Below, piece by piece: positions 311-20,000 of a stretch of 20,000 nucleotides of DNA. This stretch comes from Euglena gracilis (Eukaryota). Where the stretch lies: contig CP154954.1 of NCBI GenBank assembly GCA_039621445.1, forward strand, positions 26,787,963 to 26,807,962, given 5' to 3'. Position 1 is the stretch's first letter; each line of letters begins with the position of its first letter. The notes under the pieces are model-generated. The model had not been told where the DNA came from. It searched no databases and saw only the letters and a program-made list of their open reading frames with translations. The translations under genes were made by a program, and so were the position numbers.

Positions 311-2187
311 CCGTGGCGCACCCCACTCGGGTTTTCCGCAGAGTGAAATCCGGGGGGCTTCTAATTGGGGGTTAAGTCAACAAGAGGCAACCGGTGCCAA
401 ACAATGCATGCAATGCCCAATGGTGCCCAATGGTGGATTTATTGACTTCTTTACATCAGAGAAATGCATCCATGATGTGGAATGTAGCATTTTTGATCAG
501 AATTTTTTAAGCAAATGTACACAGATCAGGAAGGATATGGATGGAGACTTTAAACAATCACTGTTGCGAAATTGCGACATTTTGCAGAATAATTTTCGGA
601 AATTTGCGGAAATAGTAAAAAAAAAAACAAACAAAGTTGATGCCAAGGTCCAGAACAAGCATATGATGGTTACTGCAGATTCGAGCGTGAGGCCAAAACC
701 CCAGGAGGTGAGTAATCCGGATCTGGTTGACTTTTGGACCCCCCCCCCGGTCTCCCCCCTAGAACCTGACCGACCTGAACTTGACTGTTGACTTCCCAGG
801 ATGTGCACCGGCTGGGGGACAAGTGGGAGCTACAGAGCGGTATGAAATAGACAGGGGACGACTGCCCAAAAGCGAGAACGGCCAGGGGCAGAGGGCAGCC
901 AGAACCAAAACACTTCCGGCCCCTGAATTGACCCTGGAGTCATTGCGGAAGAATTGACATCCCGATCCATGCAAACGTGTGATTTTGACTTCAAGAATTG
1001 TTGCACTTTGAGCAGTTTTCCGCCTGAGGAAGAAGATTTTTGAATTATGGGCCGATAAATGGGCATTGTGGCATCAGACATTTCCCCCCCAAAAACCAAG
1101 TTCTGGATCAACCACTACGGCCGCTGGTTGACCCCAACTAGCTTGTTTTTTAGAGTTTTTTTTTTGTTGAATTTATACTTTTTTCTAAAGAAATGAAGTG
1201 TTGAGGCCCAAAATTTCCTTAAGCTCAAGTGACAATTCGATATTACCCTGCCTGAATATGTATATAGCCGCCACAAGAAATGAACAAATGATGTTAGAAA
1301 AAAGAGAAATATCTGCCAACTGCCCTCCTGCCCCTGCTGGGACTACACTACAGGAGCACAGGCAGCACACTCCAATATTTCCAGTTCAGCCAAAAGCGTG
1401 CCTGCCAATGTCCCTGACAGCACCGCCATTGCGCAATGGCACAAGCCTTGGCAGCCAGATGGACCCATAATCTTCCCCTGGGAATCCAAACTCTGTTGAA
1501 CGTTCACTGGGATCCCAGTGGACAGTCTACACCCGTGTGAAGGTATTGGAATTTTCAATCCCTGCCAGGATGAAAGAGAGTGCCATTAGGCCTTCAAAAA
1601 TCACAATCATTTCTGGTATTTGATCACCCCCCCCAAGTTGGAACATGGGGCCTGCCAGAAATGCTCAGGCACTTCGGCAATGTGCCACCCCCAGGGATGC
1701 AATGCAAACTGTCCGTTTGATGAAGCAAAGCTGCCCCCCCTTTCCCCTGACCAGGCAGAAATCCAAGGACACCCCCAGCAGGGGATGCCTCCTGGACAGG
1801 TGCTTGACAGCAGATCTAAGGGGGGGGTTCTGACTTGTCTGGGTGGAGGTGCTGGTCTCAAAGCAGCCACAGAAGGCTTGCCAAGGGGGTGATGGGGGTG
1901 GGTGGAACGGTGCTGTACAGATGAATGGCGGTCCAAACTTCTGTTAGAATGGATCAGGCACAATGGAAAAGAACACAGGACAATTTGAGGGTGTGCAAGG
2001 GTGTGTAAGAGAATGTGGGGGGGGGGGCAATGGTTGACAGTGATAACTGAATGCTTGGGAAAACCAAAAATTTAGGGCGACAATTTTCAATTATTTCTCA
2101 CTAGCAGCTCTCAAATTTCACCTCCTGTGAGGGCTGTAAACCCCCCCCACCCCCACCCTCAGGGTTTTGGGATTTCTGTAAATTCCC

Positions 2188-2493
2188 CATGGCGCTCCTT
2201 GAGGTAAAAAAAAAAATCCTGTCTCAACACATTCAATGAAAAAAACAAAATGGTTTGGAAAATAATCATATTTTGGCAAAAAAAATGTGTCGATTTCGGG
2301 GGAAAAGGCTATTCCTTGCATCTTCACACATCGTCCATCCACCCAAAATATAAAACTGCACTTTTCGACTTCTTAATTTTTGACCCCGTTCGATCCCTGG
2401 ATCGGCCGTTGGCCGTCCCTGGGGCCTGAAGATCCCTTTGGGGTGGACTTTGAAAATAAAAACCAACCTTCCCGTCCCTTATTGGCCGCCTTG
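2188..2493 (+). mobile_element. Degenerate MITE, family J
   Basis: Internal sequence matches 14523-14839 (CCATCCACCCAAA...TTTTCGACTT.TTAATTTTTG). Decayed termini CATGGCGCTCCTT / GGCCGCCTTG; flanks AAATTCCC / ACATCCCC (6/8). Confidence 0.6.
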
Positions 2494-2975
2494 ACATCCC
2501 CTGCCCTTGCCCCTGTCTCAGAACATGGTGCCTACCTTAATGGCCACATGTAAGGGAAGTCCCTCTTGACCTTTCTTTCAAAATGGAGGGGCATCCACCC
2601 TTGGCAATGCCCTTTTGAACTTTTCATGGGTCATGTGGATTGGAACTGCAACACCGCCCCACAGTTTGCTTACTGAACCACGTCCCATTGTGGCAGTCTT
2701 TCAGGGGGGATCATTTGGGGGGTCCACAATGTTCATTTGTCCAAAGGTCATCAAAGTGGGGTGTGAACTCGGCGAAAGAAATCAATTTTGTGGGATGCCC
2801 AGAGAAAACAGAATTTTAGGCAGCAAGAGGGTATACAAAGCAATATGAGTTTGAATACAGGAAGCGGATGCTGCCACGCCACCTGGAATGGAAATTTCAC
2901 TTTTGACAATTCATCTGGGTGATTGTCAAATTGGATTGTCAAATTTCATCAATGTACATGTGTCCCCTCTGCCTG

Positions 2976-3260
2976 GGAAACTGTCACCTGACAGGTCGGC
3001 CAGTGCTGAGGACCCTGACAGCTTCCTATCATGACAGGTTGGCCAGCACCCAAGACCCTGACAGTTTCCAAGGAGGGGGGCCTTGACAGTTTCCTGGGGA
3101 GGGCATTTTAAGGGAAAATCAATGGAAAAAAAAAGACCCTGACAGGTTGGTCAGCACCAGGGACCCTGACAACTTCCTAAACTGACAGGTTGGCCGGTGA
3201 CGGGGACCCTGACAGTTTCACGAGCAGGACCCTGACAGGTTCTCAGGCATGACAGTTTCC
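2976..3260. repeat. TGACAG-motif array bounded by 11-bp inverted repeats
   Basis: 11 direct copies of TGACA(G) in alternating TGACAGGT / GACCCTGACAGTTTC contexts; GGAAACTGTCA (2976-2986) is the reverse complement of TGACAGTTTCC (3250-3260). Confidence 0.75.
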
Positions 3261-3408
3261 AATGGGAGGGAGGGAGGTATGTGTGCAATAGGTACGCACG
3301 TCCACACCTGCTCCCCCCCAATCTAACAAACGTCCTGGTCCCTGTTCGGATCACAACTTTTGTCACCTGGAATTTCATATTATGCATGAATATCTGTGCA
3401 CATATCTG

Positions 3409-3796
3409 CAGGGGGGGGGGAATGCGCTCGCCCGGCCTCGGAAAAAATGCGCAAAAATGCGCAAAAAAATGCGCAAAAAAAATGCGCAAAAATCACGAAA
3501 ATGCAAAAATTACCCAAAACCATGCAAAAATGGCACCAAATTTGAAGAAATTATGTAGAATAATGAGGAAAATGTAAGTTTTAAAAAAAGTCGAAAATTT
3601 CAAATTTTTGCAAAAAAAATTGCAAAAATGGTCAAAAAATGCGAAAATTTTGGAAAATCACGAAAAAATGTGCCAAAAAGCAAAAAAATGCGCTGAAAAA
3701 AAAATGAAAGAATGCGCAAAAAATGCGAAAAAAATGCGCATTTTGGAAAATTTGAAAAAATGCGCAAAAACTGCGAAAAAATGCGAAATGCCCCTG
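3409..3796 (+). mobile_element. MITE family K with internal AAAAATGCGC reiterations
   Basis: Starts CAGGGGG, ends CCCCTG; TATCTGCA (3403-3410, overlapping the left end) vs TATCTGTA (3797-3804); many AAAAATGCG(C) motifs; 5' part recurs at 14866. Confidence 0.7.
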
Positions 3797-3844
3797 TATC
3801 TGTATACATTGAAAATAACACATTCTTGGTCTATGCATTGTTGC

Positions 3845-4479
3845 CAGGCTATTGCTTAAGGTCCCCAGGAGGGTCACTGGTTAGCCATTTCACTAGACAC
3901 TGGAAAAAAGGAGCTAGACCAGCCACCCCCCCCCAGGAAAAATTTTTTCTCCAGGAAAGAAATGAAGTTTTTAATACATTTTTTGGCTGATTTTGCAAAA
4001 ATCCCAAAAATGGCCAAAAATGGGCCTGTTTGGCAGGTTTTGGGAGTCCTCCAAAAAATTGCGGCACTTCGCGCCGGTCACTGTAAAAATTGCTAGCGGA
4101 CCCCCTCCAGGGAGGTCATTGGGATTTCGCTCGCCAAATTTGGCCTACTGTGAACCAGGCTTCTTTTTAAGTCCCCCGGGGGGGGGGAGGGGGGGGGGTC
4201 CCCCCCACCCACCCAGGGTGGCGCGGGCCCCCCTCCAAGGGGGGGGGGGTCCGGGGACCCCCCCAAAATCGGGCCCGTTAAAGGCAATTTTCAAAAATTT
4301 TCGGCACTTCGCGCCGAAAAGGTATACCCAGCGCCTCCGGCGCGGGACCCCCCCCCCCCCCTGGGGGGGGGGGGGTCCGGCCCGGACCCACCCACCCACC
4401 CCCCCTCCCCCCCCGGGGGGGGGGGGGGGGGCGGGGGACTTAAAAAGAAGCCTGCTGTGAACCCTTAAGCAATGGACTG
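3845..4479 (+). mobile_element. hAT-type MITE family E (hosts nested family D copy)
   Basis: TIRs CAGGCTATTGCTTAAGG / CCTTAAGCAATGGACTG; perfect 8-bp TSD ATTGTTGC at 3837-3844 and 4480-4487. Confidence 0.9.
4156..4454. mobile_element. hAT-type MITE family D, nested in E
   Basis: Perfect 23-bp TIR CAGGCTTCTTTTTAAGTCCCCCG; perfect TSD CTGTGAAC at 4148-4155 and 4455-4462. Confidence 0.95.
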
Positions 4480-5939
4480 ATTGTTGCAAGAAAACTGTTG
4501 CACATCAAATTTCGAGAATTTGATGCAACCCTTCATTGATATGGTAATTTTTTGAAATGATTGTTGCTTCTGTGGCATATTGAAGGTTTTCAACAGCAAG
4601 CCTTGTCTGCAATTCTTCAAAAGAATTATGCAGCCTTGGGGCATCAACAGCCATAAATATATCTGGCCTCTGGGTGAGGAACCAACTTTGAAGGAGGCCA
4701 AGTTTCCACATGATCGTTAAAAAGGAATATGAGGCTAAACTGTGAGGGAAGATAACAGCCCTGGGTTTGAGAAAACTGAATGTTGGGCTCATTACAGACG
4801 GCAGAGAGGGGAGTGGTCAGCGTTCGGCGGGAACGCTGTAAAAAGGACCCAACGGGTGCCGCTCTACAACAGAAGGCGCAAAATACTTTAAAAAATGCGG
4901 GAGCACCCTTTGTCCGACTCTTCAAAATGGCACACTGACATGTGAACACCCAGGGCTCATGTACCCCCCCCTTTGCCCACCGACCGGGTTCCTATGACCC
5001 CTGACCGGGGGGGGGGGTCATACACGCCACCCAACCCACCACCCCCGACCAGGGGGTGGTCGGACGGCTGAGTACAAAAACAAAAAAACAACCCAGTTTT
5101 CAAAGCCACCTACAACCCCGGCCAGGGTGGTCGTATGTACCCCCGAAACTGTATCCCCCAACTGGGGGGTGGTCGTTGTTCATGGGTGGTTAGCGGGCAA
5201 AGGAAGGAGGTATGGGGGCTGTGGTGAGTTGGGTGGGATGACATTGGAACCTTCAAGAAAATTATGGATGACTGCAGAAAAGCTCATACTGAGAACACAT
5301 TTCCACTGAAGAGGAAAAAATCACCTCAGGCTCAAAGTGCCAATTTTTTCCAAGTTGAAAAAAAATTCCCAGCAGAACTGGGGGGGAGGGGCAAACTTGG
5401 CACGAAGGGTCCCCTTGGGAACAAAAAAAATCATAGGGGAGCTGAGGGAAAAGTTTGGCGTAGAAATCGGCACCCCCCAGAAAAATGGAAAGGCCTGGTG
5501 GGGGGCCAGGGATGGATGGGAAGCCTTGAGGGTCGGACCCCCCCCCCTCCTACTCGAAACTGAGGGAGGGCCGAAAATTTTTCGATTTCATGGACGGGCA
5601 AAGGGCCGGAAATCTGTTTGAAATCGGTCAAAAATCCCTGATTTTTCTTTGAAAATCAATCCAAAAATGCTCATTTTTGAAATTTTTTGAACATTTTTTT
5701 GGGGGGGGGGAACACCAACACGTCAAAAAGTGGGCAATATGTCCAAAAGTCAGCAAAAGGGGGGGTTTTGCTCATTTTCCGGCGCTGTGCGCCGGAAGAA
5801 AATTTTCTGCTATTTTTGGCACCTGTTAAGGAGGGGTGGTCCGCCCCCCCTACCACCTTATCCCCCCAGGGGGGGTGGGGACCCCCCCCCTACCACCTAC
5901 CTCAATACCGGTTGGCTCCCTGGGGGGGGGTCCCCACCC

Positions 5940-6257
5940 CACAGCGGTCCTTTACAAAATTTAAAAAAAAAACTCCGCTGTTCCAGCACAGTCAATGGAA
6001 AAAAAACCAGGGAAGTGGGCAAGAAAAATTGGTATTTTCCGGCAAGAAGAGGTCGAAACCAGGAAAAAAATAATCCCTGGCATCCTTGGACTATCGCCCA
6101 TCCACCCAAATCATCAAAAAATGTGCATTTCGGCTTTTGAGTTTTTGACCCCGTTCAAGTCCCAGTCCAGCCCTTGGTCGGCAGAAAGGGGGGGGGCAGT
6201 CCTTAAGAAAACGAAAAAAAACTTTCCTGACCCTTCCGGTTTCAAAGGACCGCCCTG
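5940..6257 (+). mobile_element. MITE family J
   Basis: Colinear with 14523-14839; right TIR AAGGACCGCCCTG intact, left CACAGCGGTCCTT decayed; TSD weak (C-rich). Confidence 0.8.
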
Positions 6258-7044
6258 ACCCCCCCCCACACACAGTTCTGTACAGCCCCTGGCAAATTCC
6301 GCCAAAAATCAAAAAATACACAAATGCAGAAAAGGCGCTTGTGCCCTCCCCTGCCTTGAGACCCATTTGACGAATTATCAGAACGCATTGCGTCATCCAT
6401 TGGGTGGATCTCAAGGAATCATTATTATTATTTTTTATTAAATTATTTTTCACGGCGGGAGGGGTCCCAGCTCAGCCCACCCCACGATGGATGGGGGTCC
6501 CTCTTTTTTTTCAGTGCGAAGAACTAACATTTTTGGGACAAAATTGACCCCCAAATCCCCTGTCCCACCCCAGGGGCTGGTTTGGTGCCGACCCCCCCCC
6601 CGGGTCCTTAAAAAAAATCTCACACACCTCATCCATTTGATATTATGCATTTGAACCAATTTCTTTAAAAAAGGGTCGGACCAAAATGAGTTCCATCTGT
6701 TTCGACGAAAACCAAATTAAAAAAAAGTGCTGGGGGGATCGCTGGGGGAGGACCTGAACCAAAACCTCACAGAATAAAAAACCACCAAAATGAGAAGATG
6801 CCTTGTTCAAAAAAAAAAGAAACCCAACATTACACCGCTTCGCAGACGCTCAATCCACCTCCATCATTTGCAGCAAAAGGATGAAATGTGAAATGGGGAT
6901 TCCAATGTACATCAAAAGGACTGGTGTGCTGACCTCCGCTCAGGATATCACCTGACGGCATCCCACATACCAACCCCCAAGGGAAACACATCTCTGGATT
7001 GCCAATTCTCAGGTAGCAGTCCACCCCTCTCGACCTGTTGACTT

Positions 7045-7444
7045 CATAGTGGGCATTTTTTTAAAAAAAACAATGTGTTTCTTGAAGAAGAAAAAACACC
7101 AAAAAAAACCATTAAAAAGACAAAAGGGAAATTTCTTTGAAAAAACTCGTTATGAAACACCCAAACCATACTCTTTAAGATAAGATACTTTGAATCCTAC
7201 TAAGTTCAAAAACTGCCAAAACATGGGTCAAAATGCAGAAAAATGCAATTTTATGACGTTTTTCATGTTTGTGGAAATGAGTTTTTGGCAGAAAATACCC
7301 AGAGGTTGCCAAAATGATTGAAAATAAACATATAAAATTTTTTTGTGCAAAACCTCATGGGCGTTTTTTTGTTTTTTTAATATTGTCAAATTTTAAAAAA
7401 GCAAACAAAAAAACAACCTCAATAAAAACAGGCTGCCCACAATG
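7045..7444 (-). mobile_element. AT-rich MITE family F (inverted relative to 18598-18996)
   Basis: TIRs CATAGTGGGCA / TGCCCACAATG; TSD GTTGACTT / ATTAACTT (6/8); body is the reverse complement of the 18598 copy. Confidence 0.85.
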
Positions 7445-8281
7445 ATTAACTTGTCAAATTTGAACTCCGTTTGATAACGAACGTGTTGTGAGGATTTCAT
7501 AAATAATCAGAGCTGGAAGCGGAAGCCACCTTGGGGTGAACACCAGATGACCCTCATCCAGATAACCCTCATTGCAGGAGGAGGACTCGCAACGGGCATC
7601 CAACCTTGAAAAGGATGGTGGTGACCCATTTTGCAGGGAAGCCTTTTTACCCTTCATTTTCCAGGGAAGCCTTGAGAAAAATTGCAGGAAAACTGCGGGA
7701 AAAGAAAGAGGAAAAATGTGTGGGGGAAAACAGAGGGAAAATTGTGGGAATTGCAGCTATTTTTGTCAAATTGGTGATTGCTTTGAGATGTTATTGACAC
7801 TTTTTCCAACAAAAAACCCAGACAAAGGATTTTGTACTTTCTGGAACACACTGATTTCAGAAATAATTATAAATAATTTGTAAAAATTGGCAAACTTTGG
7901 CAAATTGGCAACAAAATATCAAAAAAATGCACCAGGGTTCCCTCATGAAACGCTCAAGGCATGGCCGGAACTCACTTCGCCATCCGTTTCAGGTTCATGC
8001 GGAAAAATTGTGGAAAAGCTTCAAAAATGGTGGACAACTGCAGAAATTGCGGGAAAATTGTGGTTATCAATTCCCCACCCCTGCATTTGAACCAACTGAA
8101 TGTGACCCGAGAGAACCGAAACCCAAAGCCAAAATCGCAGCTTCGCTCACTCCACTCATTCATTCCACTCATTCCACTCCACTCATTCCCTGCCCAAGCA
8201 CCCAAGAGTCAAAAAATTCCTCAAAAGGGCCTCATCATGGCGTTGATTTTTTCCCAAGAAATTCCGGGAGTCACCCTGGCG

Positions 8282-8408
8282 GAAGATACCTCGGGCCAAG
8301 CCAGGGCTTTCAAACCCAAACATTGGCACTTGGGTCTGCCTGGGCGCGGCAGGGGCATACGCCGCGTGGGAGAGAGGGCTCGAGTTAGGCCAGATGCCCA
8401 TCTGTGGT
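8282..8408 (-). CDS. Putative downstream exon of the CCCH zinc-finger gene (PQMGIWPNSSPLSHAAYAPAAPRQTQVPMFGFESPGLARGIF)
   Basis: Non-repetitive island, preceded on the minus strand by CCCTG-TCGCA| and followed by |CGC-CAGGG. Joins in frame (phase 2) to exon 9697-9803 via a shared GCAACC repeat. The next exon was not found. Confidence 0.45.
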
Positions 8409-8562
8409 TGCGACAGGGTGCAAATCTGCTGTTGGCTCACCAAAAAAAAGGAATGCTGAGTTCAAGCCATTTTTTCTGTGCGAGCTGAGGGGTTGAAAAA
8501 AGGTGCTGGTGCAACCCGGGGGGGGGGGGGGGTGCAGGATCCCACCGGCTGCCAGGGTGGAC

Positions 8563-8775
8563 CAGGGTTCGATACAACGGCAGGTGGGGGGTCGATGAGG
8601 TGACCGAAAATATTCACCTCCCAAAATCTGCAGAATGCTATTTTGGAGACTTTTGGGGGAAAAAAACTGTCAAAAATGCGAAAAATTTTCGGTGGAAAGC
8701 ACCAGAAGGGGGAAAAAACCGGAAGGAAAAGACCTTTTGGGGTGGGTCCCGGGCAGGGGTTTTTCAAGACAGGGG
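8563..8775 (+). mobile_element. Family C-like MITE relic, interrupted by a family A copy (right end unresolved)
   Basis: Starts CAGGGTTCGATA like 11467; internal sequence resembles 11585-11725. Confidence 0.6.
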
Positions 8776-8783
8776 GTGTCCGC

Positions 8784-9103
8784 CATGCTTGTGCTTACCA
8801 ACCGGGGGGGGGGAGGGGGGGGTGGGGGCTATAGGGTGCCTGCCCCTAGCAGGCACACCCCCCCCGGGGGGGGGGATAGGGGTCCGGGCCGGACCCAGAA
8901 AATTTTCATTGAAAATGGCCTTTTCCGGGCCCCCGGCGCCTTCGGCGCCGGGGTCGGAGGGGGGTGCCTGCTAGGGGCAGGCACCCCCCAAAACCCTACC
9001 CCCCCCCGGGGGGGGGGGGGTCGGATCGGGTGCTATGGGGTGCCTGCCCCTAGCACCCGCCCCCCCCCCCCGTGGGGTAGGCACCCGACTAAGCACAAGC
9101 CTG
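8784..9103 (+). mobile_element. hAT-type MITE family A
   Basis: TIRs CATGCTTGTGCTTA / TAAGCACAAGCCTG; perfect TSD GTGTCCGC at 8776-8783 and 9104-9111. Confidence 0.95.
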
Positions 9104-9696
9104 GTGTCCGCCCTCTCACCTGGTCCAGGAGGAGGGCACCCCTCCACCGAAACCCCTCACACCCTCCTTGCACCCTTACACCCTACACCCCACTTTTTAC
9201 ACCCTCCTCTAGGGGTTTCCTACTCTAAACAGTGTCAAAAGGCGCAATAGACGACCAGAGACCGTGGAAAAAATAAAAATTCCACGACACACTCTTCTGA
9301 TACCTGATTTGGTGGGCACCTCATACAGAAGGTGTTGGAACTTACAGCCAGAATTGATTTTTCTTCACATTTTCGGATTTTTTTTTGGAAAAAGCATTTT
9401 CTTTTGGCCCAGTCCAGTTGGGTTGGAACTTTTTTGAGTCAAAAACCCAGGTCAAATCCAAAAATACCTCAAACAGCCAAAAATAATAATTTTAGGCCAT
9501 TTTTTGCCCCTTTTGAAAGAAAAAAACAAATGGCGATCCGTGTTATTTTTTTTTAGGTCCAGAAAGTCCTGTGCTCTTTCTTTCATTGAATCTTTCATTG
9601 AATAAATAAATAAAAGTTTCCATCAACTGAGGACAAAAAGAAGCCAAGGACGGACCCTTTTTGAAACGACATTACAAGTTTGCCCCCCATTGAGGT

Positions 9697-9803
9697 TGCC
9701 TGTCTGGCATCTGTTTTGCTGGAGGAAGCCGGGCTGCTGTTCGCTGGCGAGAAAGGTGGTCGGCCAGCTTGGTTAACGACATGACAGCCGCTTCATTGTC
9801 CTC
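9697..9803 (-). CDS. Exon of the CCCH zinc-finger gene (EDNEAAVMSLTKLADHLSRQRTAARLPPAKQMPDR); alternatively reads through to the stop at 9672
   Basis: Starts exactly 5 nt after CCTG on the minus strand and continues the zinc-finger exon in frame (...KEMRCR|EDNEAAV...). Confidence 0.75.
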
Positions 9804-10478
9804 CCAGCCAGGCTTCTCTTCTCTGACCCCAGGTGGTCCTTGCCCAAAGCACCACCCCCAGGGAGATGCGCAAAACCCCCCTTCTCTGTTTTTTTTGGTG
9901 GTGGCACGTTTTCGGCGATCCACAGAGACGATGCTTTGCAGCCCGAATATCACAAAAAACACACACACAAAATTGAAAAGGGGGCTGATTGGCAGTTCCT
10001 GGTCTGAGAGTCCGTGCAGGGGAAAGCAAAAATCTCAGAAACCTCTTTCATGGGTTTTTACCAGTTTGAAAAACGAAAATTAGGGGCCGGTGTTTTTTTG
10101 TCTAAGGGCGAAGCGGGACAAAAAAACATGGACACCTTCGTTGCTGTGTCCATTTGTTTGAGATTGAGCATTGTCCAGGCTTCTGCTTAAGGGTTCAGCA
10201 CCCCCTGGAGGGGGGGGGGCTCAACTGCAGCTTGTCCAAATTTGGCCAGTTGGAATTCTGTTACAAAAAAAAACCAGCCCCAACCGAAAACACGAAACAA
10301 AGGCGAGAATTGCAGCAGAAAAGAATATCTCTTTGTTTGCCTGACCTGAACATTGATGGTGCCTGGCCTGAACATTGATGGTGCTTTGACACTCCCCATC
10401 CCAAAAACCGACCCCCTCCCAGAAGAGGGGAAACTTTGAAAATGCCAGTGGCGGGGTCACATTCAAAAAAGCCTGCTC
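9804..10478 (-). other. Nonconventional intron = decayed MITE (9809-10475) plus one TSD length
   Basis: Minus strand: AGG|GAG-CAGGCTTTTTT ... AAGAGAAGCCTG-GCTGG|GAG. CAG at +4..+6, CTG at -8..-6, no GT donor; 7/8 TSD CTCCCAGC (9801-9808) / CTCCCTGC (10476-10483); removal is in frame. Confidence 0.8.
10176..10260 (-). mobile_element. Inverted terminal fragment of a family E-like MITE inside the intron
   Basis: CAGGCTTCTGCTTAAGGG...TGCAG...GTCCAAATTTGGC is the reverse complement of the 11140-11222 end. Confidence 0.65.
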
Positions 10479-10652
10479 CCTGCAGCGCATTTCCTTAGCC
10501 CCATGGGCATAGACACAGGTGTCCCCGTAAGGGCACTTCCCAGTCTCCTTCCAATTGCGACACAGGCGCGTCTTGTACTTGTTGTGGTCCACTGAGTGAT
10601 CATCGTGATGGGTGCCCGAAACCTTGGCGGCCTTTGCATTCCTCTTGGCCTT
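10479..10652 (-). CDS. CCCH-type (C-x8-C-x5-C-x3-H) zinc-finger exon, TIS11/ZC3H-like RNA-binding protein
   Basis: 174 nt = 58 codons containing [27 protein letters not shown] with the canonical KYKT lead-in; bounded by CCCTG-AGACC| and |GAG-CAGG. Confidence 0.9.
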
Positions 10653-11352
10653 GGTCTCAGGGTTGGATACGCCCAACCCAGAAGAAACCAGGATTCTTTC
10701 CTTGGAAAAAAAAGAGGGTCAAAAATAGGGGGAAATGGCATTTTCTCCGCAAAATTTTGGCTTAACAATCTCAACCCAGCTGGATTGGAATTTTTTCCGC
10801 CAACTTTTCAGAAGCTGGTTGGACTCCCTGGCTAGCCAATCGGCTAGACACTGGAAAAAAATGGACCAGCTAGACCCTCTCCTCCCCCGGGGGGAAGGGG
10901 GGCACCCCCAACTGGAAAAAAATTTCCTCCGGCGCTGTGCGCTGAGGTGGAAATGAGGTTTTTAATAGGTTTTTGGCTGATTTTGATCCAAAAATTCCCA
11001 AATGGCCAAAAGCAGGCATTTTTGGCCATTTTTGGGGGTCCCAACAAAAATTCAGTGCTTCGCGCCGGTCACTGGAAAAATTTTTTCCACTGGCTAGCCC
11101 TGCTAGCAGACCCCCCCCCGGGGGGGTCTGCTAGAAATCCCACTAGCCAAATTTGGACTATCTGCAGTCCAGCCCCCCCCCGGGGGGGGGGGGGGTACTA
11201 CAATCCCTTCAGCAAAAGCCTGGTCAGCCCCTTCTGGTGGCTGCACCACTGCACTGTGATTGGCAGGCAGGTGACTGTCAGAGGAAATACATCCTTTTTT
11301 CTCTAGACTTCGTACCCAGTTTTTGGTTCCAAGGAAGGGGAATTCCCTGGTT
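10653..11352 (-). other. Putative nonconventional intron upstream of the zinc-finger exon (3' end well supported, 5' end tentative)
   Basis: Minus strand |AAC-CAGGG ... CCCTG-AGACC|; the 5' CAGGGAATTCCCCTTCCTTGG can also pair with 10689-10706; TSD only 4/8. Confidence 0.4.
10820..11222 (+). mobile_element. Family E-like MITE (left end decayed)
   Basis: Body colinear with 3875-4145 (TAGCCA...CTAGACACTGGAAAAAA...TTTTTGGCTGATTTTG...CTTCGCGCCGGTCACTG); right TIR CTTCAGCAAAAGCCTG. Confidence 0.75.
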
Positions 11353-11358
11353 TGGCAT
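11353..11358 (-). CDS. Tentative first coding exon (ATG CCA), giving MP|KAKRNAK...
   Basis: ATG CCA directly abuts NNN-CAGGG and is in frame with the zinc-finger exon; an in-frame TAA lies just upstream. Confidence 0.3.
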
Positions 11359-11400
11359 GCGCCTCTGATGGTGGTGTTCTTACGACTCGGGGGTCTGGAT

Positions 11401-12104
11401 CATGCTGTTTTTACCAACCCCAGGGGGGGGGGGGGTCCGGAGTGCCTGCCCAGGCAGGCACTACCCCAGGGTTCGATATAAGGACAGGTGGGGGGGTGGT
11501 CCGGACCCCCCCCCCGGGGGGCCAGGAGGGGGGGGGGGGTTGGGGGGCACACCCCCCCCCACCTAAACAGGTGCGCGGTCTGGGTTACCGAAAAATTTTG
11601 ACACCCCAAAACGACCAAAAGTGCCATTTTGGGCACTTTTTGGGCAAAAAATGTGCCAAAAATGCAAAAAATTTTCGGCGCAAAGCGCCGGAGGAAAAAA
11701 TCGACCCTTTTTGGGGGGGTCCCGGGAATCCCCCCGAGGGTCGGTCCGGACCCCCCTGGCAGGTGGGGGGGAGTGGTCCGGACCCCCCCCCTCCGGGCCA
11801 GGAGGGGTGGGTGGGGGGGACACCCCCCCCACCTAAACCATGTACGCCCTCCTTATATCAAACCCTGCACTACCCCCCCGGGGGGTCGGATTTCGGCCAG
11901 TGCCCAGGCACATTCCTTTGAAAATAGGCCATTTTTGGCTCCCCGGCGCCTTTGGCGCCGGGGTTGTGCCAGGGCACTTTTGGCAGTTTGCCCTACCCCC
12001 CCCCCCCGGGGGTGTGTCGCCTTTGGGGTACCTAGGAATGCCTCCCCAGGCCGGTACCCCCCCCACGTGGTTGGGTCGGCACCCGACTAAAAAAAAACAG
12101 CCTG
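11401..12104 (+). mobile_element. hAT-type MITE family B (hosts nested family C copy)
   Basis: TIRs CATGCTGTTTTT / AAAAACAGCCTG; TSD GTCTGGAT / GTCTGGAC (7/8); body matches 17066-17384. Confidence 0.9.
11467..11867 (+). mobile_element. hAT-type MITE family C, nested in B
   Basis: TIRs CAGGGTTCGATATAAGGA / TCCTTATATCAAACCCTG (17/18); perfect TSD CACTACCC at 11459-11466 and 11868-11875. Confidence 0.95.
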
Positions 12105-12112
12105 GTCTGGAC

Positions 12113-12300
12113 AAACATTCACTTAGTGACCTGGGGGAGCATTCTTCCCAGGCCCCAAACCCCCCCCCCCCCTTTTTTTTTTAAAAACCACCACCCCCCC
12201 ACAATCACCGTGGGTCAACCACTCACCCACCCACCCAAAATCCAGCCAAAATTGGCCGAAAATGCTGGAAAGAATTCTCTGACCCTCTGGGCTCCTGGAT
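12113..12300 (+). repeat. Dispersed repeat family M, copy 2 (ends approximate)
   Basis: Similar to 95-310. Confidence 0.6.
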
Positions 12301-13499
12301 CTGGCCTGGGGGGAGGGGGGACAGTGGGCCGACCCCAGGTTGGCCCACTACGACCCTAGGGTCGCTGGGGTCGACCCCCCAGGCTGTGTAGTGGGGGGGG
12401 GGGTTCGGTCGGCGGTGCTTGCGCACCTGGGGCGCCAGCTGGGCTCCCTAGGGGTCACCTGGGAATTGCCCGCGTCCCAGTCCCCGTTAGGTGGGCGGCC
12501 CCTGTGCAGCTCTGCCATGGGCTCCCTCAGGTGGCCGCTGTGGTTGCAGCCAGGACCCGAGAGTGACCCGCCTCTTCCGCGGTGGTGCCTGCGACGACAC
12601 GGTGGATGAAGGGGCGCCGAATTGCCGGCGCCGCGGGCGAGGTGGCCCCAGCTGAACTCGTTGTCATTTCGGCTGGGCGCACGGGAGGAGCCGTCCTCCT
12701 GTGTTTCAGGGCTGGCTCCCCGGCAGCTGCCCCTGTGCAAGAGCATCTGAACTCGATGTAGCTCCGGCGGACGGCAGCGCTGGTGCGGCCTGTGATGCTG
12801 GACACACAAGGGACAAAAAGTAGGCTTTCCATCGTCCCGAAAAATGGCTGAACCACGTTTCCGACATACCGCCGGAGGTGATGACTTTCACAGGCCAACG
12901 CACCTGATGGGAAGGTCGGAGACCTGGGTGGAGAGGGCACTGCATGTCTTTCGGGACGAACCAGGTCTGCAGCTCGGAGTCTTGCTCTGCTGTGGTTTTC
13001 AGCCGCCGCGAAAAGCCTGCCAACAAGGAAGAGGATCTATCCCCAGCGTCGCTGGGGAAGGCGCAGCCATGGTCAACCTCCCACAAGAGGAGAAGGGCCA
13101 TCCCGGACTCGCCCTCCTCGGGTGCCACCGGCTTCAGAAACCGGTGGCACCGCAGCCAGGCGGCCAGGGTGGCGTTTGCTGCAGCTTTTGCGCGCCTGCA
13201 GTGCTGGTACCAGCTGTTGGCTGGAGGCACCTCCCCTGCCTTGGGAACTCGGGACAGCAGAGGGGACAACGAGGGCGGGGGGTGCAGACACAGGAGGCCC
13301 AACACGCAGCCAATGGAGCCGTCACGTTGCTGCACATTCACCCCTGGGGTTGGAAGGACTCACCGGTGCTGCGTTCGAAGAGAGCCAGCAAGACCTCTAC
13401 TGAAGACCCAGCAGCTGATGGGCAGGTCTCCGTCTCCTCCTGTAAAAGGACCAGGCGCTCCCGCAGCCACTTCAGGCGAACGGGGCCACACGATGGGAC

Positions 13500-13779
13500 C
13501 ATGCTTGTGCTTACCGACCGGGGGGGGGGGAGGGGGGGGGTGCTATAGGGTGCCTGCCCTAGCAGGCACACCCGGGGGGGACCCAGAAAATTTTCATTGA
13601 AAATGGCCTTTTCCAGGCCCCAGCGCCGAAGGCGCCGGGGTCGGAGGGGGGTGCCTGCTAGGGGCAGGCACCCCCCAAAACCCTACCCCCCCCCCGGGGG
13701 GGTCGGATCGGGTGCTATGGGGTGTCTGCCCCTAGCACCCCCCCCCCGTGGGGTAGGCACGCGACTAAGCACAAGCCTT
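13500..13779 (+). mobile_element. hAT-type MITE family A
   Basis: TIRs CATGCTTGTGCTTA / TAAGCACAAGCCTT; TSD GATGGGAC / GATGGAAC (7/8); removal rejoins PSSQVP|SCGPVRLKW in frame. Confidence 0.92.
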
Positions 13780-14522
13780 GATGGAACCTGGGATGATGGC
13801 AAAGGAGGTGGGGAGACCGCATGAAAAAAGACATTGCGCACATGCGCAACAGTTTTACATTGCGCATACGCGCAATGGATAACTGTTGTGCGGGCGCAAC
13901 ATTTACCAACAGCAATGTGTAATGGAAGCCCCTGAGCTTGTGACAATCCCTGTGATGTGTTACAGGTTGCAGTGTGTCGGGGGGCCCTCTCTCCCCAGAT
14001 GGTGCTACACGGGCCAGGTGAATTTTGGCCCTTTTGTTGCTTTTTTAGGCTCTGAATATTTCCGTGTTGCCGACGGAGGTGTCCAGAGGTATGTAAACCC
14101 CCCAAATAATACCCCCCCCATTGGGATCCGACTTCAGCCGCCAAAATAATACCCCCCCCCGGTTTCGGGCCAAAACCGGGCGGGCAGGCACCCTCTGCCT
14201 GTCACAACTCCGTCACCGTGAGGCGGCGCTCCGGTGGCAGGTGCGAAGGCTGGCGTTGTCCCAGCACCCATTCCTGGGGTACCAGGCCCAGACCGTCCGG
14301 GACACGTTGTGGGGCGGCGGCAATCAGCTCGCAGCGGCGACTCATCCACTTGGCCAGGCGTTCTGCGAGCAGGCAATGCAAACGAGCGAGGAAGCGCTGG
14401 GCATCCGATGGGGACAAGGGGCAGGCAGGTGGGACTCCGGCAACAGTGCAGCTGCGAGGGGATTGTGGAAGGACGCCACCCAGTCCTCCGGCGGCAAAGG
14501 CAGGGAAGGCGGCATTGCTCAC

Positions 14523-14839
14523 CAGGGCGGTCCTTAAGCAAATAAAAAAAAAAACTCCGCTGTCCCAGCACACTCAGTGAAAAATTTACCGGAAAATGGG
14601 CAAATAAATTTTGGCATTTTTCAGCGAGAACAGGTCGACATCAGGAAAAAAAATTGATTCCTGGCACCCTTGGACCATCATCCATCCACCCAAATCATCA
14701 AAAACTGTGTTTTTCGACTTTTTAATTTTTGCCTTTTCCAAGTCCTAGTCCAGCCCTTGGTTGGCCCTTTGGCCGAAAGGGGGGCGGTCCTTAAGGAAAT
14801 ATAAAAAAAAAACTTTCCTGTCCCCTAAGGACCGCCCTG
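14523..14839 (+). mobile_element. hAT-type MITE family J
   Basis: TIRs CAGGGCGGTCCTTA / TAAGGACCGCCCTG; perfect TSD TTGCTCAC at 14515-14522 and 14840-14847. Confidence 0.95.
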
Positions 14840-14865
14840 TTGCTCACCTGCAGTGGACCAGTGGA

Positions 14866-14945
14866 CAGGGGGGGGGGAATGCGCTGGACGGCCCTCGGAA
14901 AAAATGCGCAAAAATGCGCAAAAAAATGCGCAAAAAATGCGCTGA
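14866..14945 (+). mobile_element. 5' fragment of family K
   Basis: CAGGGGGGGGGGAATGCGCT...CCTCGGAAAAAATGCGCAAAAATGCGC is near-identical to 3409-3490. Confidence 0.75.
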
Positions 14946-15420
14946 GTTTGTACATTCCTAAGGGAAAAAAGACTGAGAAAAATTTCCAACAATAAGCCCA
15001 AAATCAAACCAAAATTACCAAAAACAGCTGAAATGAAGGCATTTTTGGTTAAAAAAAAAATGCACAAGCAAGGCGTCACCCTCTGTTCACCATAACCGAC
15101 AATGTCAGCCATGGTGCCCCTCACTTGTGACCAGGGGAGTAGAATTCGATGTGGGGTCTCTGAAAACCCTAGTGTCCTCATCATCATTGGATGAGTACCC
15201 ACTCATCACCCAAGGGTTTTTTCTTGAGGCAGGTCCCTTGGGTGGTAAAAAAAGTGCGGAAATGGGTTCGTTGGTTATACAAATGGGTTAGTTGAACGTG
15301 GGCAAAATTCGGTGAGCATGTGGTTTGGTTGGTGTTGAAGAACGGTGTTGAAGAACACCAATGTCGAGTTTGTTTTTGACATACGGACAATGTGGACAAC
15401 ATGGACAATAGGGGAAAAAA

Positions 15421-15585
15421 TGGGATATACTTTTCAGCGCCGCAGGCGCCAAAAAAATGCTATTTTTAGCACTTTTCGCGATTTTGTGGGTCCCCCGGGA
15501 CCCCCCCCCCCCGGCGGGGACCCCCCAGGGGGTGGGTGGGTGGGGGGGGACCCCCCCTCCCCCCCTGTTTTAAAAAAAGCCCCTG
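15421..15585 (+). mobile_element. 5'-truncated family L MITE
   Basis: Matches 19821-19995; ends AAAAAAAGCCCCTG followed by ATGATGAC. Confidence 0.8.
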
Positions 15586-16279
15586 ATGATGACCATGAAT
15601 TGACCCCAAAAATTCCAAAAATGCTAAAAATTATTGCAAAAAAAAACCTGAAATGGCAGAAAACCAGCCAAAAATGCAAAATATTTGGGGTTTTGATGCA
15701 AGCTGCCCACATATGCAGTGCTTTTCTTTGCCAAAAATCATCACACTACATCACATCGCTATGTCTCTCCTTTCTAACATTGAGCGCGACAAACACTCAA
15801 TGCGCTTCTTTGATCAGTGCATTTGTGATGGTCAAGATTTTTCCCAACCGTGAATGAATGCGCAAACTCCAAAACCAGAAATTGGTATTTGGAAATGTCC
15901 AAGAACTCCTGTCTTTGATTTTTCTCTATACCACATGTTGGCGTTGGAGTTGTATTGTCCATTTACAACGATTTGTATTCGAAAAACGGCTCAAAACGGC
16001 TTGAAACGAACCAATGTAACTCATTTGTCAAAGGTTGGAATGAAGTGGGACAAATTCTGAGGTCAATGCGCTTTTGCAGCAATGACATTTCCATTTCAAA
16101 CCATTCATTTCCGCTTTCTGAACCATTTTGGTCGGTTTTGGGGGGTTCCAACAAAATCATTATTCATGACGCAGCATTTTGGACGGAGACTGCGTTTTAA
16201 GACACAGGCCTCATGCCTGAAGTCCGGCGGCGTAGACGCACACCCTGTCCTGAGTCCCTGCACCTAAGACGCGGACTTT

Positions 16280-16577
16280 AAGGGCAAAAGTGCAAAACAC
16301 CCGATCCGTGTGCAAAAAATTTCGGAACGTAGGCAAATATTTTGAGATAAAATGCCAAACATTTTTGAGACAAAATGTGAACAAATTTTTAACATGTGCA
16401 AACATTTTTGAGATAAAGTGCAAAATATTGACCGGAAGTGCAAAAAAATACGGTGTGGAGTGCGGAAAAATCGGGATGTGCGGCATTGAAAATCGATTAA
16501 TCGATCACCGGACGAACGAACGATGATTGGGGGGGTCTTGACCGATTGATCGACTTTCGATTAATCGAACAACCCTG
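16280..16577. mobile_element. Transposon end with CGATTAATCG subterminal motifs (left end unresolved)
   Basis: Ends CGATTAATCGAACAACCCTG; palindromic CGATTAATCG at 16494 and 16558; interrupts the retroelement. Confidence 0.55.
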
Positions 16578-16923
16578 CCGGGAAACGGCGATTGGGGTGG
16601 ATGCCGGGAAAACAAAATGAGGAGGCGTAATGATGAGCGCTTCTCCCAGGAGACCAGGCACCTGAGCCACCAGGCCCAGGCGAACGCTGCGGGGAGGTCG
16701 TAGATCGTCAACCCTGAGGCGTCTTGCAGGAGCAAGGGATCGTCAAAGCATGGGGGGGGGGAGGAGACCACGTTGATGCGGCCCGGCCAAGGGCAGCCTC
16801 CTTGGCCCAGAAATCGGCGGAGTCGTTCCCCACTGCCTTGGGATGACCGGTCTCAATGGCGGCCGTGTCATGCGCCCGCACCTTCTCCAGGAGTGGCGCC
16901 GTTGAGAGGGAGGAGGCTGCGGC

Positions 16924-17466
16924 CAGGCTTGTGCTTACCGACCGGGGGGGGGGGAGGGGGGTGGGTGGGTGCTATGGGGTGCCTGCCCCAAGAAGGCACA
17001 CCCCCGGGGGGGGGGGGGTCCGGGGGGACCCAGAAAATTCTCATTGAAAAAGGCCTTTTCCGGGCCAGGCTGTTTTTTTACCAACCCCGGGGGGGAGGGG
17101 GGGGTCCGGAGTGCTTTTGAGTGCCTGACCAGGCAGGCACTGGGGGGGGGGGTCGGATTTTGGCCTGTGCCCAGGCACATTCCTTTGAAAATAGGCCATT
17201 TTTGGCTCCCCGCGCCTTTGGCGCCGGGTCTGTGCTAGGGCACTTGTGCTAGGCACTTGAGGTAGGGCCGTGTGCCCTACCCCCCCCCCCCGGGGGGGAC
17301 GGGTCGGGAGTGCCTTGAAGTGCCTGCCCAGGCAGGCCCCCCCCCCCCTGGGGTGGGGTCGGCACCTGACTAAAATACAGCCTGTTCCGGGCCCCCGGCG
17401 CCTTTGGCACCTTTAGCCTTTAGCATCCCCTCCCGTGGGGTAGGCACCCGACTAAGCACAAGCCTG
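16924..17466 (+). mobile_element. hAT-type MITE family A (hosts nested family B copy)
   Basis: Perfect TIRs CAGGCTTGTGCTTA / TAAGCACAAGCCTG; perfect TSD GCTGCGGC; removal restores VVRQIIAAASSLSTAPLLEKVRAH. Confidence 0.95.
17066..17384 (+). mobile_element. hAT-type MITE family B, nested in A
   Basis: TIRs CAGGCTGTTTTTT / TAAAATACAGCCTG; perfect TSD TTCCGGGC at 17058-17065 and 17385-17392. Confidence 0.95.
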
Positions 17467-17492
17467 GCTGCGGCGATGATCTGGCGCACTAC

Positions 17493-17826
17493 GGGGGGGG
17501 GGGGGGATTTCGTGCCAGAGAAATTTTGCGGCGACAAATTTCGCGGATGACAAATTTCGTGGGATTCCTTAAAAATGCCCGAAAATATTTTGCGGGATTT
17601 TTTTTCTGTGAAGCAAAAAAGGGAAGCCTTGAGCACCTGAAAGGAAATACACAGACAAAAATTTCGCGGGATTCCTTAAAAATGTCTGGAAATATTTCGC
17701 GGGATTTGCTTCCGCGAAAATTGTCTGGCAAATTTTCTCTAGAGCAAAATTTTTGCCCCCCCCCCCCCGGGGGGGGCCTGAGGGGGGACTGGAGGACCCA
17801 CGGAAGGGGGAAAAGAATCCCCCCTG
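17493..17826. mobile_element. MITE-like insertion with AAATTTCGCG reiterations (family H)
   Basis: Interrupts the RNase H region; ends GAATCCCCCCTG; ~50-bp internal direct repeat (17552-17600 / 17658-17707); left end and TSD not resolved. Confidence 0.6.
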
Positions 17827-18199
17827 CCAGCGTTTGGGAGGAGGTCAGTAAGTCTGTCAAGATGTGCGGGGGGGGGGGAGGCCTCCGCCGCCGTGCGTAG
17901 GGCCACCAACTCGCAGAGGGTGGAGCTCAAGGGACCTGGAACAGAACAGGTGAGGGCAGACTCGGTGTCTGGGGCCCAGACCGCGGCTCCCCCGGAGGAC
18001 GCTAAGGAGTCATCTGTGAAGACGGCACCCGGAGGGAGGAAGTCATTAACCGGCGTGAGGACAATCTGTCCTGGGTAGGCCTGCTCGGGGCAGAGGCGCG
18101 GCCAGGCTGCAGACCGGACGAGCGCAAGCCTGGTTGCGCACCACACGCCATCCCACTGCGAGGGCAGAGCGCAGAGCGGAGGATGTTTCTGCCCAGGTT

Positions 18200-18298
18200 T
18201 AGGATAATGACATTCGTGAAAAGTGGTCGGAAAGAAAAGGAAAAAAATCGTGAAATTTCGTGAAATTTCAGGGGCCGGAAATTTCAGTCACCACCCTG
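18200..18298. mobile_element. 99-bp hAT-type MITE (family G)
   Basis: Termini TAGGATAATGAC / GTCACCACCCTG; perfect TSD CCCAGGTT; removal restores ACPGPTWAETSSALRSAL. Confidence 0.88.
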
Positions 18299-18597
18299 CC
18301 CAGGTTGGGCCCGGGCAGGCGATTGCCCGGTGGACGAAGCCTGAGATGGCAAAGGTGTTGCCCAGGGTCTGGAGCCATACCAATTGCAGAAACCGCATGG
18401 GCGACCGGGTGTGCCACAGCAGATTCTCCCAACGGGCCCCCCACTGCCGCAGCGGGGAGCGCCAGGTGTTCAAGCGCAGGGGCTTGTGACCCATGGCCGC
18501 CACCCCGGCGGACATGAGCCGCTGGGGGGCCATCGGCTTGAGATCCCGGATCTGGTACACACCTGTGGGAGGACAGTGGCGCGCCACAGGAGGGAGC

Positions 18598-18996
18598 CAT
18601 AGTGGGCACGCCTGTTTTTTTTGACGTTGTTTTTTTGTTTTTTTATTTCTAACAATGTTTTTTTTAAAAAAAACAAAAAACACGCCCACTAGGTTTTGCA
18701 GAGAAAATTTTTTGAATGTGTATTTTCGGTCATTTTTGGCAACTTTTGGGTCAGTTTTACCAAAAACTACCTCCTGTAAAAAATGGAAAAAGTCATAAAA
18801 TTGCATTTTTTTGCTTTTTTGGATGTTTTCGACCATTTTTGGCACTTTTGAACTGAGTAGGATTCAAAATATGGTTTGGGAGTTTCATAATGAGTTTTCT
18901 GAATGAAATCTCCCTTTTGCTTTTTGATGTTTTTTTAGTGGTTTTTTTTTAAAAAAAACACATTGTTTTGTTTTTTTTAAAAAAATGCCCACTATG
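18598..18996 (+). mobile_element. AT-rich MITE family F
   Basis: Perfect TIR CATAGTGGGCA / TGCCCACTATG; perfect TSD GAGGGAGC at 18590-18597 and 18997-19004. Confidence 0.95.
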
Positions 18997-19375
18997 GAGG
19001 GAGCACAGGGAGGACGGCAGGGGGAGCCTTCAGCCGGCGCAGGGTCTCCAAGGCCTTGCCCAGGCGAGGGGCGAAGTGCACCTCCGAGGCCTGGGGCTCT
19101 GGCAAGCCCAGCTCCACACCGACAAAGCGAAAACCTGAAGAGGAAACAATGTCCAGGTCGCCCAGCTGGAGGCATGCTCGGATGAGGGCCGTCATTTCTG
19201 TGGCCGAGGCGGCAATCAAGGCCACATCGTCCGCGAAGCTGATGGAGGGCAGTCGGATACCCGCCACCGGCACGCCCATATCGCTGGCAGCCGCCCAGCG
19301 GTGGAAGGTCTCCAATAGAATATTGAGGAGATCCGGGCTGTGTTGTGCGCAGACCCTGGGGTCGGCCCACCACAC
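18997..19375 (-). pseudogene. Reverse transcriptase core fragment (non-LTR type)
   Basis: HSPDLLNILLE...GVPVAGIRLPSISFADDVALIA matches the QG..SP.L and (Y/F)ADD motifs; frameshift at the QG motif and an apparent deletion after FADD. Confidence 0.9.
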
Positions 19376-19714
19376 GACCTCACCCCCCCCCCAAAAACAC
19401 ACTGGAATTTTCTTGTGTGTTCAATCCACGCCACTCAAAGAACGAACATTTTGGGGAGGGGGGCAAATCCAGGGTCGGTGAACACCCTATTTTCTAAAGC
19501 CAACTGGGAGGCCTTGTGCAAGCAGCCAAAATGGCCAAAATGGATGGACACAGTTCAAAAAAGGTCAGAAAAATGACATAAAAAGGCCCAGCATTTCCTA
19601 ATCTTTTTAAAAATATTTGAAAACATCCCAAAAAAATGATTGACGATCTGCCAGAAATTTGCCCAAAATGAAGCCTCAATGGATTGAACACGACATCAAA
19701 AAATCCATGATGAC

Positions 19715-19995
19715 CAGGGGTTTTTTTAGTCGTGGACCCCCGGGGGGGGGGAGGGGGGGTGCAGGGTGGGTGGGTCCGGCTGAGCCCCCCCCGGGGGGGG
19801 GGGGTCCCCTTGGAGGGGGGTGGGATATACTTTTCGGCGCCGCAGGCACCAAAAAAAAATCTATTTTTAGCACTTTTCGCGATTTTCGGCCATTTTTTGT
19901 GGGTCCCCCGGGACCCCCCCCCCCCCCCCGGGGGCCCCCCCAAGGGGGGGGAGGGTGGGGGGGGACCCCCCCCTGTTTTTAAAAAAAAACCCCTG
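19715..19995 (+). mobile_element. hAT-type MITE family L
   Basis: TIRs CAGGGGTTTTTTT / AAAAAAACCCCTG; TSD ATGATGAC on the left, ATGAT (cut by the window edge) on the right. Confidence 0.92.
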
Positions 19996-20000
19996 ATGAT

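Follow-up and report, generated by a model that had tools for sequence, protein, structure and literature searches.

A 20,000-nt stretch of Euglena gracilis nuclear DNA (hereafter the window, along which all positions are numbered) carries part of a minus-strand CCCH zinc-finger gene together with 14 insertions of MITEs (miniature inverted-repeat transposable elements). One of these insertions, at 9809-10475, interrupts the coding sequence of the zinc-finger gene and is itself removed from its RNA as a nonconventional intron. We scanned the whole window, aligned RNA and DNA sequencing runs to it and asked how far this case bears on the proposal that the nonconventional introns of euglenids descend from MITEs.

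The gene is identified by its exons. Minus-strand translation of 10479-10652 is 100% identical to three database proteins, among them eukprot:EG_transcript_18911 (P0003), a transcript-derived CCCH zinc-finger protein of 270 aa, and the exon at 10476-10652 holds a Pfam zf-CCCH domain (E 4.2e-13). A tblastn search with P0003 placed residues 132-189 at 10652-10479, residues 190-226 at 9800-9690 and residues 227-269 at 8407-8281, and the stop codon is assembled at the 8281/7573 junction (CAA TGA). Residues 1-131 were not found in the window by this search, so the intron upstream of 10652 is longer than 9.3 kb and extends past 20000. This large intron takes in 10653-20000 and, with it, 9 of the 14 insertions.

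One DNA run (X1) and three RNA runs (X21, X22 and X24, drawn from two studies and labelled with the species of the indexed DNA runs) were aligned to the whole window, and 15 of 1509 joints were listed, none of them a back-splice joint. The joint 9800->10476 was present in 215, 213 and 48 reads of X21, X22 and X24, respectively, and in no read of X1; it skips 675 nt and carries 5 ambiguous bases. Those 675 nt equal the 667-nt MITE plus 8, the length of one target site duplication (TSD). Contigs of the X1 DNA span both borders of 9809-10475, with the joined form in 0 reads. Nearly all first mates of X24, a stranded run, map to the plus strand, a pattern that fits RNA transcribed from the minus strand. 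The protein across the junction reads MRCR/EDNE (here and below a slash marks the splice junction), matching P0003, and this block is conserved in two relatives at 61-66% identity. By arithmetic, bin depths of 47.9 and 72.9 are fully covered by two exons at about 286x (position 10593), suggesting very low retention of the 9804-10478 intron. Minimum free energy and centroid folds both pair the 5′ 13 nt of the intron with its 3′ end, the z score of the whole intron being only -2.08 (20 shuffles). No other copy in the window breaks into conserved coding sequence, and the one at 9809-10475 is removed as the element plus 8 nt without GT-AG borders.

Where exactly the cuts fall can be compared with the published splicing code for nonconventional introns, 5′-N3CDG...CH′GN5-6/R, which was set by knock-ins and which admits a 5′ spacer of 3 nt only and a 3′ spacer of 5 nt or, as a tolerated variant, 6 nt (PMC12501133). 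The allowed registers of the three RNA joints of the CCCH gene were enumerated and none yields GT-AG or GC-AG, ruling out conventional splicing of these three introns. Register k=3, out of 0-5, places the 675-nt intron at 9804-10478, with CAG at +4 to +6, CTG at -8 to -6 and G as the first base of the following exon, so that the signature N3-CDG...CH′G-N5-6/purine is present in full. A single base distinguishes the two TSD copies, and its upstream version is the one retained in the mRNA, so that the 5′ spacer can be no longer than 5 nt. An exact cut at -3/+5 of the element would lie within the 0-5 nt ambiguity of this joint.

The other introns of the gene resemble this pattern in part. Intron 8408-9689 offers no GT-AG in its 4 allowed registers, and k=1 gives CTG-N5/A, at the 3′ end only; its ends look like terminal inverted repeats (TIRs; CAGGGTGCAAA vs TGGGGGGCAAA, 11/22 matches). 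Intron 7574-8280 ends in GC..GC or CG..TG, with N3-CAG at the 5′ end (k=1) and a 3′ end that is off the code. The former is 6 nt longer than the span of its TIR-like ends, and the extra length of the latter is 3 nt; neither value is 8. At the 3′ end of the upstream intron of more than 9.3 kb, CCCTG-AGACC/A corresponds to CTG-N5/purine, and the terminus of this intron, CAGGGTTGGATAC, resembles the TIR of family G.

The insertion at 9809-10475 is one of many. A strict scan for exact 8-bp direct repeats around 12-nt inverted ends with at most 2 mismatches returned 61 raw matches, of which 8 are clean, non-homopolymer elements and the remainder lie in G/C runs; mononucleotide-shuffled controls gave 0 matches in 19 of 20 shuffles and 2 in one. 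A looser scan for TIRs and TSDs was not discriminating, with 35 matches, mostly G/C runs, vs 4-12 in 10 dinucleotide shuffles. The original prediction, made from the letters of the window, had listed 14 insertions, and inspection of their printed ends recovered all of them with small corrections that moved right ends to 7444, 10475, 12104/13779 and 18298. The TSD is 8 bp long in every case; its two copies match at 8/8 positions in nine insertions, 7/8 in three and 6/8 in one, and one meets the window end. TIRs match at 12-22 of 22 positions in 13 elements and at 9/22 in the remaining one (18200-18298), which is the weakest case, its direct repeat really being 11 bp. Element lengths span 99-704 bp, and three are nested within others (4156 in 3845, 11467 in 11401 and 17066 in 16924). 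The shared CAG...CTG termini that had been proposed hold at both ends for 8 of the 14; the other six show CAT...ATG (7045, 18598), CAT...CTG (8784, 11401), CAT...CTT (13500) or TAG...CTG (18200). As a separate observation, position 8 of the TSD, the base directly before the element, is C in 11 of 14 insertions by count, and position 1 is G in only 6 of 14; this pattern would be either an asymmetric target preference or a bias related to splicing.

Comparison of the window with itself by BLAST sorts the insertions into about 9 families, close to the ten or so first suggested, with three copies of family A, two of B, three of C, two of D and three of F. Copies that had not been listed before are those at 5940-6257 and about 2184-2391 (family C) and at 15421-15585 (family F), and a family G fragment from 8563. 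The bodies had been described as mostly unrelated, which holds only in part: several families have a modular, hairpin-rich build in common, with C-run/G-run palindromes and, at the centre, a GCGCC-loop-GGCGC hairpin, and so are not wholly unrelated. Stretches of 5 or more C adjoining 5 or more G, in either order, number 17 in the window vs 0-1 in 20 shuffles; the central hairpin occurs 9 times vs 1-5 in shuffles, 6 of the 9 within MITEs. Sites of either kind lie at 4173-4431, 8858-9020, 10884-11195, 11506-12012, 13686-13702, 17001-17298, 17756-17776 and 19737-19934. The family A copy 16924-17466 folds with its ends paired (z = -5.14).

Word depth in the DNA run over bins of the multi-copy families is 10^3-10^4 times that of single-copy pieces, a figure to be taken qualitatively only, and the depth of family H (9809-10475) in X1 is roughly 10-15 times single copy by rough arithmetic, depth not being copy number. 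At the position of the family G insertion, DNA contigs derived from further copies of family B skip about 407-412 nt, 409 being expected, an inexact agreement. The 14-nt terminus of family A matched at least 118 stretches in metagenomes; the 80 inspected have a single match each and none has both ends, and we took these matches as chance. Two further repeat observations concern the window at large. The copy at 19715-19995 is 81% identical to 15421-15590, where another family F copy lies, and the same 8 bases, ATGATGAC, flank both (15586-15593 and 19707-19714), although the copies are only 81% alike; an old segmental duplication, target preference or chance could account for this. Tandem-like repeats of the AAAAATGCGC type lie at 3409-3790 and 14866-14942, the stretch 3409-3487 being 92% identical to 14866-14942, with very high word depth in the DNA run there.

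Table 1. Exons, introns and MITE insertions of the window. Read counts are given for RNA runs X21/X22/X24; TSD entries give sequence and matching positions.
Feature	Position	Strand	TSD	Evidence and remarks
Exon of about 42 nt beyond the stop codon	7532..7573	-		Longest side of joint 7573->8281 is 42 in 3/3 RNA runs, which would place the left boundary at 7532
Nonconventional intron, 707 nt	7574..8280	-		RNA joint 7573->8281, skips 707 nt, 1 ambiguous base; 144/166/78 reads; 0 in DNA X1
Last coding exon, P0003 residues 227-269	8281..8407	-		tblastn, 93% identity; RNA joints
Nonconventional intron, 1282 nt	8408..9689	-		RNA joint 8407->9690, skips 1282 nt, 3 ambiguous bases; 155/178/60 reads; 0 in DNA X1; holds MITE 8784-9103
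Exon, P0003 residues 190-226	9690..9800	-		tblastn and RNA joints
MITE family H, 667 nt; acts as a nonconventional intron in the CCCH gene	9809-10475	-	7/8: CTCCCAGC (9801-9808) / CTCCCTGC (10476-10483)	RNA joint 9800->10476
CCCH zinc-finger exon	10476..10652	-		Loose end behind 10652 in 229/174/69 reads
3′ end of upstream intron (>9.3 kb)	10653..10662	-		...CCCTG AGACC / exon (CTG-N5/A)
MITE family E	3845-4479		ATTGTTGC 8/8	Partial relative at 10950-11082
MITE family F	4156-4454		CTGTGAAC 8/8	TIR 22/22; nested in 3845-4479
MITE family D	7045-7444		6/8	CAT...ATG ends; 74% identical, inverted, to 18598-18999
MITE family A	8784-9103		GTGTCCGC 8/8	Within intron 8408-9689; 84% identical to 13499-13778
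MITE family B	11401-12104		7/8	Hosts nested 11467-11867; 78% identical to 17147-17390
MITE family G	11467-11867		CACTACCC 8/8	Nested in 11401-12104
MITE family A	13500-13779		7/8	Right end mutated to CCTT
MITE family C	14523-14839		TTGCTCAC 8/8	Other copies: 5940-6257 (TSD 6/8) and ~2184-2391
MITE family A	16924-17466		GCTGCGGC 8/8	Hosts nested 17066-17384
MITE family B	17066-17384		TTCCGGGC 8/8	Nested in 16924-17466
99-nt element, TAG...CTG	18200-18298		CCCAGGTT 8/8	
MITE family D	18598-18996		GAGGGAGC 8/8	Interrupts reverse-transcriptase-like open reading frame
MITE family F	19715-19995		Left ATGATGAC; right meets window end	5/5 visible bases of right TSD match

Downstream of the zinc-finger exons, blocks of expression reach as far as 821, from where 136 reads extend beyond the window, which suggests that the minus strand at 821-7531 is a long, multi-intron 3′ untranslated region or a downstream cistron. 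RNA variants at 8301 (C>G), 8310 (T>C) and 10593 (T>G) occur in about 20-30% of reads and are absent from the X1 contigs, and two residues that the last coding exon encodes are not the same in P0003 as in the window; both findings could stem from alleles, paralogues or strain differences. Two database proteins from assembled public runs (P0001 and P0002; minus strand, 10221-10718) read, with variants, from the zinc-finger exon straight into the MITE, and look like open reading frames (ORFs) called on unspliced genomic contigs. Upstream, the minus strand at 12300-19420 is ORF-rich and almost unexpressed, with a FADD motif near 19250. Atlas points these ORFs to reverse transcriptase with a score of 0.93, a lead only, and Pfam returned no match above threshold for 9 ORF pieces from 12.3-19.4 kb, a sub-threshold match to AP_endonuc_2 being disregarded. 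In-silico removal of 18598-18996 together with 8 bp leaves a frame open for 138 + 103 aa across the site. The stretch 12300-19420 is probably a decayed retroelement lying within the large intron.

The origin of the nonconventional introns of euglenids has been open since the 1990s. A 2014 paper proposed descent from MITEs, at a time when euglenids had no identified transposable elements (PMC3935182); a 2025 Discussion calls the origin 'unclear' and mentions MITE-like elements (PMC12501133), and a review considers these introns probably MITE-derived, with TIRs and TSD-like repeats (PMC11282704). Nonconventional introns make up 71.8% of the introns of E. agilis, and flanking direct repeats accompany 84.4% of all introns of that species (PMC12501133). 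They are released as circles, seemingly without the spliceosome (cited in PMC11282704 and PMC12621601). Nonconventional splicing of the kind described here is thus already known, as is the MITE proposal. In the paper on the draft genome of E. gracilis, no word starts with 'transpos'. Our literature search, with supplements, figures and subscription journals outside it, found no paper naming Euglena MITE families as nonconventional introns and none relating the 3 + 5 spacers to an 8-bp TSD.

Taking these data together, we think it likely that the window contains about 9 MITE families with 8-bp TSDs and mostly CAG/CTG ends, for which the element plus 8 nt is the unit of nonconventional splicing. 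Short, non-autonomous DNA transposons would integrate through an 8-bp staggered cut that duplicates the target. Once transcribed, the inverted ends of the element would pair in the pre-mRNA, and a splicing activity would make one cut 3 nt before the 5′ CAG and the other 5 nt past the 3′ CTG. Loss of the element and exactly 8 nt, that is one TSD copy, would restore the message as it was before insertion, whichever way round the element had landed. The precise removal of 9809-10475 directly supports the MITE-origin hypothesis. The high-copy families may behave alike when they land in exons, and such MITEs may be the main source of nonconventional introns in Euglena. We lean slightly toward the broader proposition that the splicing code is calibrated to one transposon superfamily and would read the CAG/CTG inverted ends of MITEs with 8-bp TSDs, so that removal of the element plus 8 would make any new insertion, whatever its orientation, silent in mRNA, and that such MITEs generated most of the roughly 70% of introns that are nonconventional. 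That the excising activity is itself derived from the transposition machinery is much less likely.

Several observations weigh against this interpretation. The cut register of the 675-nt intron is ambiguous over 0-5 nt, and each of the two other introns verified by RNA agrees with the code at a single end, with 6 and 3 extra nucleotides. Just one insertion out of 14 constitutes an intron, and 13 lie within larger introns or in the unexpressed reverse-transcriptase-like remnant. The spliced copy belongs to a low-copy family, and among the 15 of 1509 joints listed no high-copy family is seen spliced. In six of the 14 elements, one terminus or both depart from CAG...CTG. The evidence for mobility consists of TSDs and nesting, with no empty-site polymorphism seen, and no transposase was found within the window.

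One alternative is that ordinary MITEs simply gather in introns, where insertion is neutral, and that, a CAG/CTG stem being all that nonconventional splicing requires, one of them is now and then spliced by coincidence; MITEs would then not be the main source of nonconventional introns. The 13 insertions in larger introns or in the reverse-transcriptase-like remnant, the two verified introns that are not an element plus 8 and the confinement of observed splicing to a low-copy family all speak for this account. We nonetheless consider it unlikely: it needs a threefold coincidence of terminal trinucleotides, of a TSD equal in length to the 3 + 5 spacers of the published code (PMC12501133) and of precise removal of the one copy in coding sequence, and it sits poorly with the direct repeats that flank 84.4% of E. 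agilis introns (PMC12501133).

The duplications themselves bear on two further accounts. Repeats of 8 nt flank a newly gained intron in gapC of E. agilis, and its authors read them as products of double-strand-break repair (PMC4770533). Extending that reading from E. agilis to the 8-nt repeats of the window, in place of integration by a transposase, seems highly improbable to us. Copies of the same family carry differing 8-bp repeats of constant length at identical termini, which is the signature of staggered-cut integration, and such repeats are also found at insertions nested in MITEs and in DNA that is not expressed. We give equally little credence to spread as RNA, in which excised circular introns would reverse-splice into transcripts and then be copied back into DNA. 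The release of nonconventional introns as circles is compatible with such a route (cited in PMC11282704 and PMC12621601), but reverse splicing would bring the old N3 and N5 bases with it and would leave the new target without an 8-bp duplication, whereas 9 of the 14 copies have perfect target duplications of differing sequence, and copies also lie in poorly expressed DNA. Least probable is that the 675-nt joint reflects an allele or strain without the insertion: an empty site and a spliced product are identical in sequence, and the RNA variants at 8301, 8310 and 10593 are missing from the X1 contigs, but those contigs span both borders with no joined form in the run, 14 DNA runs contain about 0.7 of the words, the same reads also lack two neighbouring introns that have no exact repeats, and, of two TSD copies that differ at one base, the mRNA makes a defined choice.

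With these alternatives weighed, splicing of the element plus 8 as one unit is the interpretation we retain, and it settles what can be kept of the idea from which the analysis started, namely that the host excises such insertions from RNA without GT-AG signals. Excision of this kind is borne out by 9809-10475, and the offsets of -3/+5 proposed for it fall within the range allowed for this copy, in one low-copy family only. The system was also suggested to comprise many families of introners independent of GT-AG; this is real for one copy, from one low-copy family, and belongs to a mode of splicing already described in euglenids. The argument that RNA excision accounts for the density and nesting of the insertions finds no support here. 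Thirteen of the 14 lie in larger introns or in the unexpressed reverse-transcriptase-like remnant inside the intron of more than 9.3 kb; insertions in introns are neutral anyway, so that density and nesting need no excision from RNA.

What the window offers is a set of multi-copy MITE families with fitting termini and an 8-bp duplication equal to the sum of the fixed spacers (3 + 5). Together with one precisely removed copy in coding sequence, these families make the MITE-origin hypothesis directly testable. If the link proves general, it would explain how a genome tolerates a massive invasion of its genes by transposons.

Transposons of the hAT superfamily have the terminal motif YARNG and the target consensus nTnnnnAn. 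MITEs of hAT type resemble the elements of the window in their 8-bp TSDs and in termini beginning with CAG or TAG, and from these two features our best guess is that the transposase that moved the window elements was hAT-like. Element ends begin with CAGGG or TAGGA in families C, G, F and I, with CAGGC in A, B, E and H and with CATAG in D; relative to the target consensus, T stands at position 2 in 9 of 14 TSDs and A at position 7 in 5 of 14. No hAT transposase ORF with matching TIRs was found among the ORFs of the window (ORF list and Pfam). The CA/TG pair of the window elements is part of the inverted repeat and not of the duplication. A maize element, Ds, was reportedly described by Giroux in 1994 as acting as a de novo intron. 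Removal of Ds differs in using the ordinary spliceosome and cryptic sites and in being imprecise, whereas the MITE at 9809-10475 is removed precisely. Merlin elements occur in E. gracilis and likewise make 8-bp TSDs, but all Merlin TIRs begin with GG (PMC8101967), which rules this superfamily out for elements whose termini are CAG, CAT or TAG.

Among introns of transposon origin, the introners of Micromonas and Aureococcus are also non-autonomous elements with TIRs and TSDs, and their removal restores the message (PMC11282704). They differ in that the element supplies one of GT or AG and the TSD the other, for use by the spliceosome; in the window intron GT-AG is not used and the cut would be set by distance from the CAG/CTG stem. 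A spliceosomal introner, in which element and TSD together make GT...AG, is ruled out for 9809-10475, which has no GT-AG register. Introns of Fritillaria borealis and of dinoflagellates are, as here, transposon-derived, with non-canonical ends, TIRs and TSDs (PMC11282704); an adapted spliceosome is thought to remove them, whereas the euglenid introns leave as circles, seemingly independently of the spliceosome (PMC11282704, PMC12621601). The closest likeness is to the nonconventional introns of euglenids themselves. Intron 9804-10478 shares with them borders other than GT-AG, CAG at +4 to +6, CTG at -8 to -6, a terminal stem, a purine at the start of the exon and efficient removal; it differs in being a bounded MITE with an 8-bp TSD that stands among multi-copy families with the same termini.

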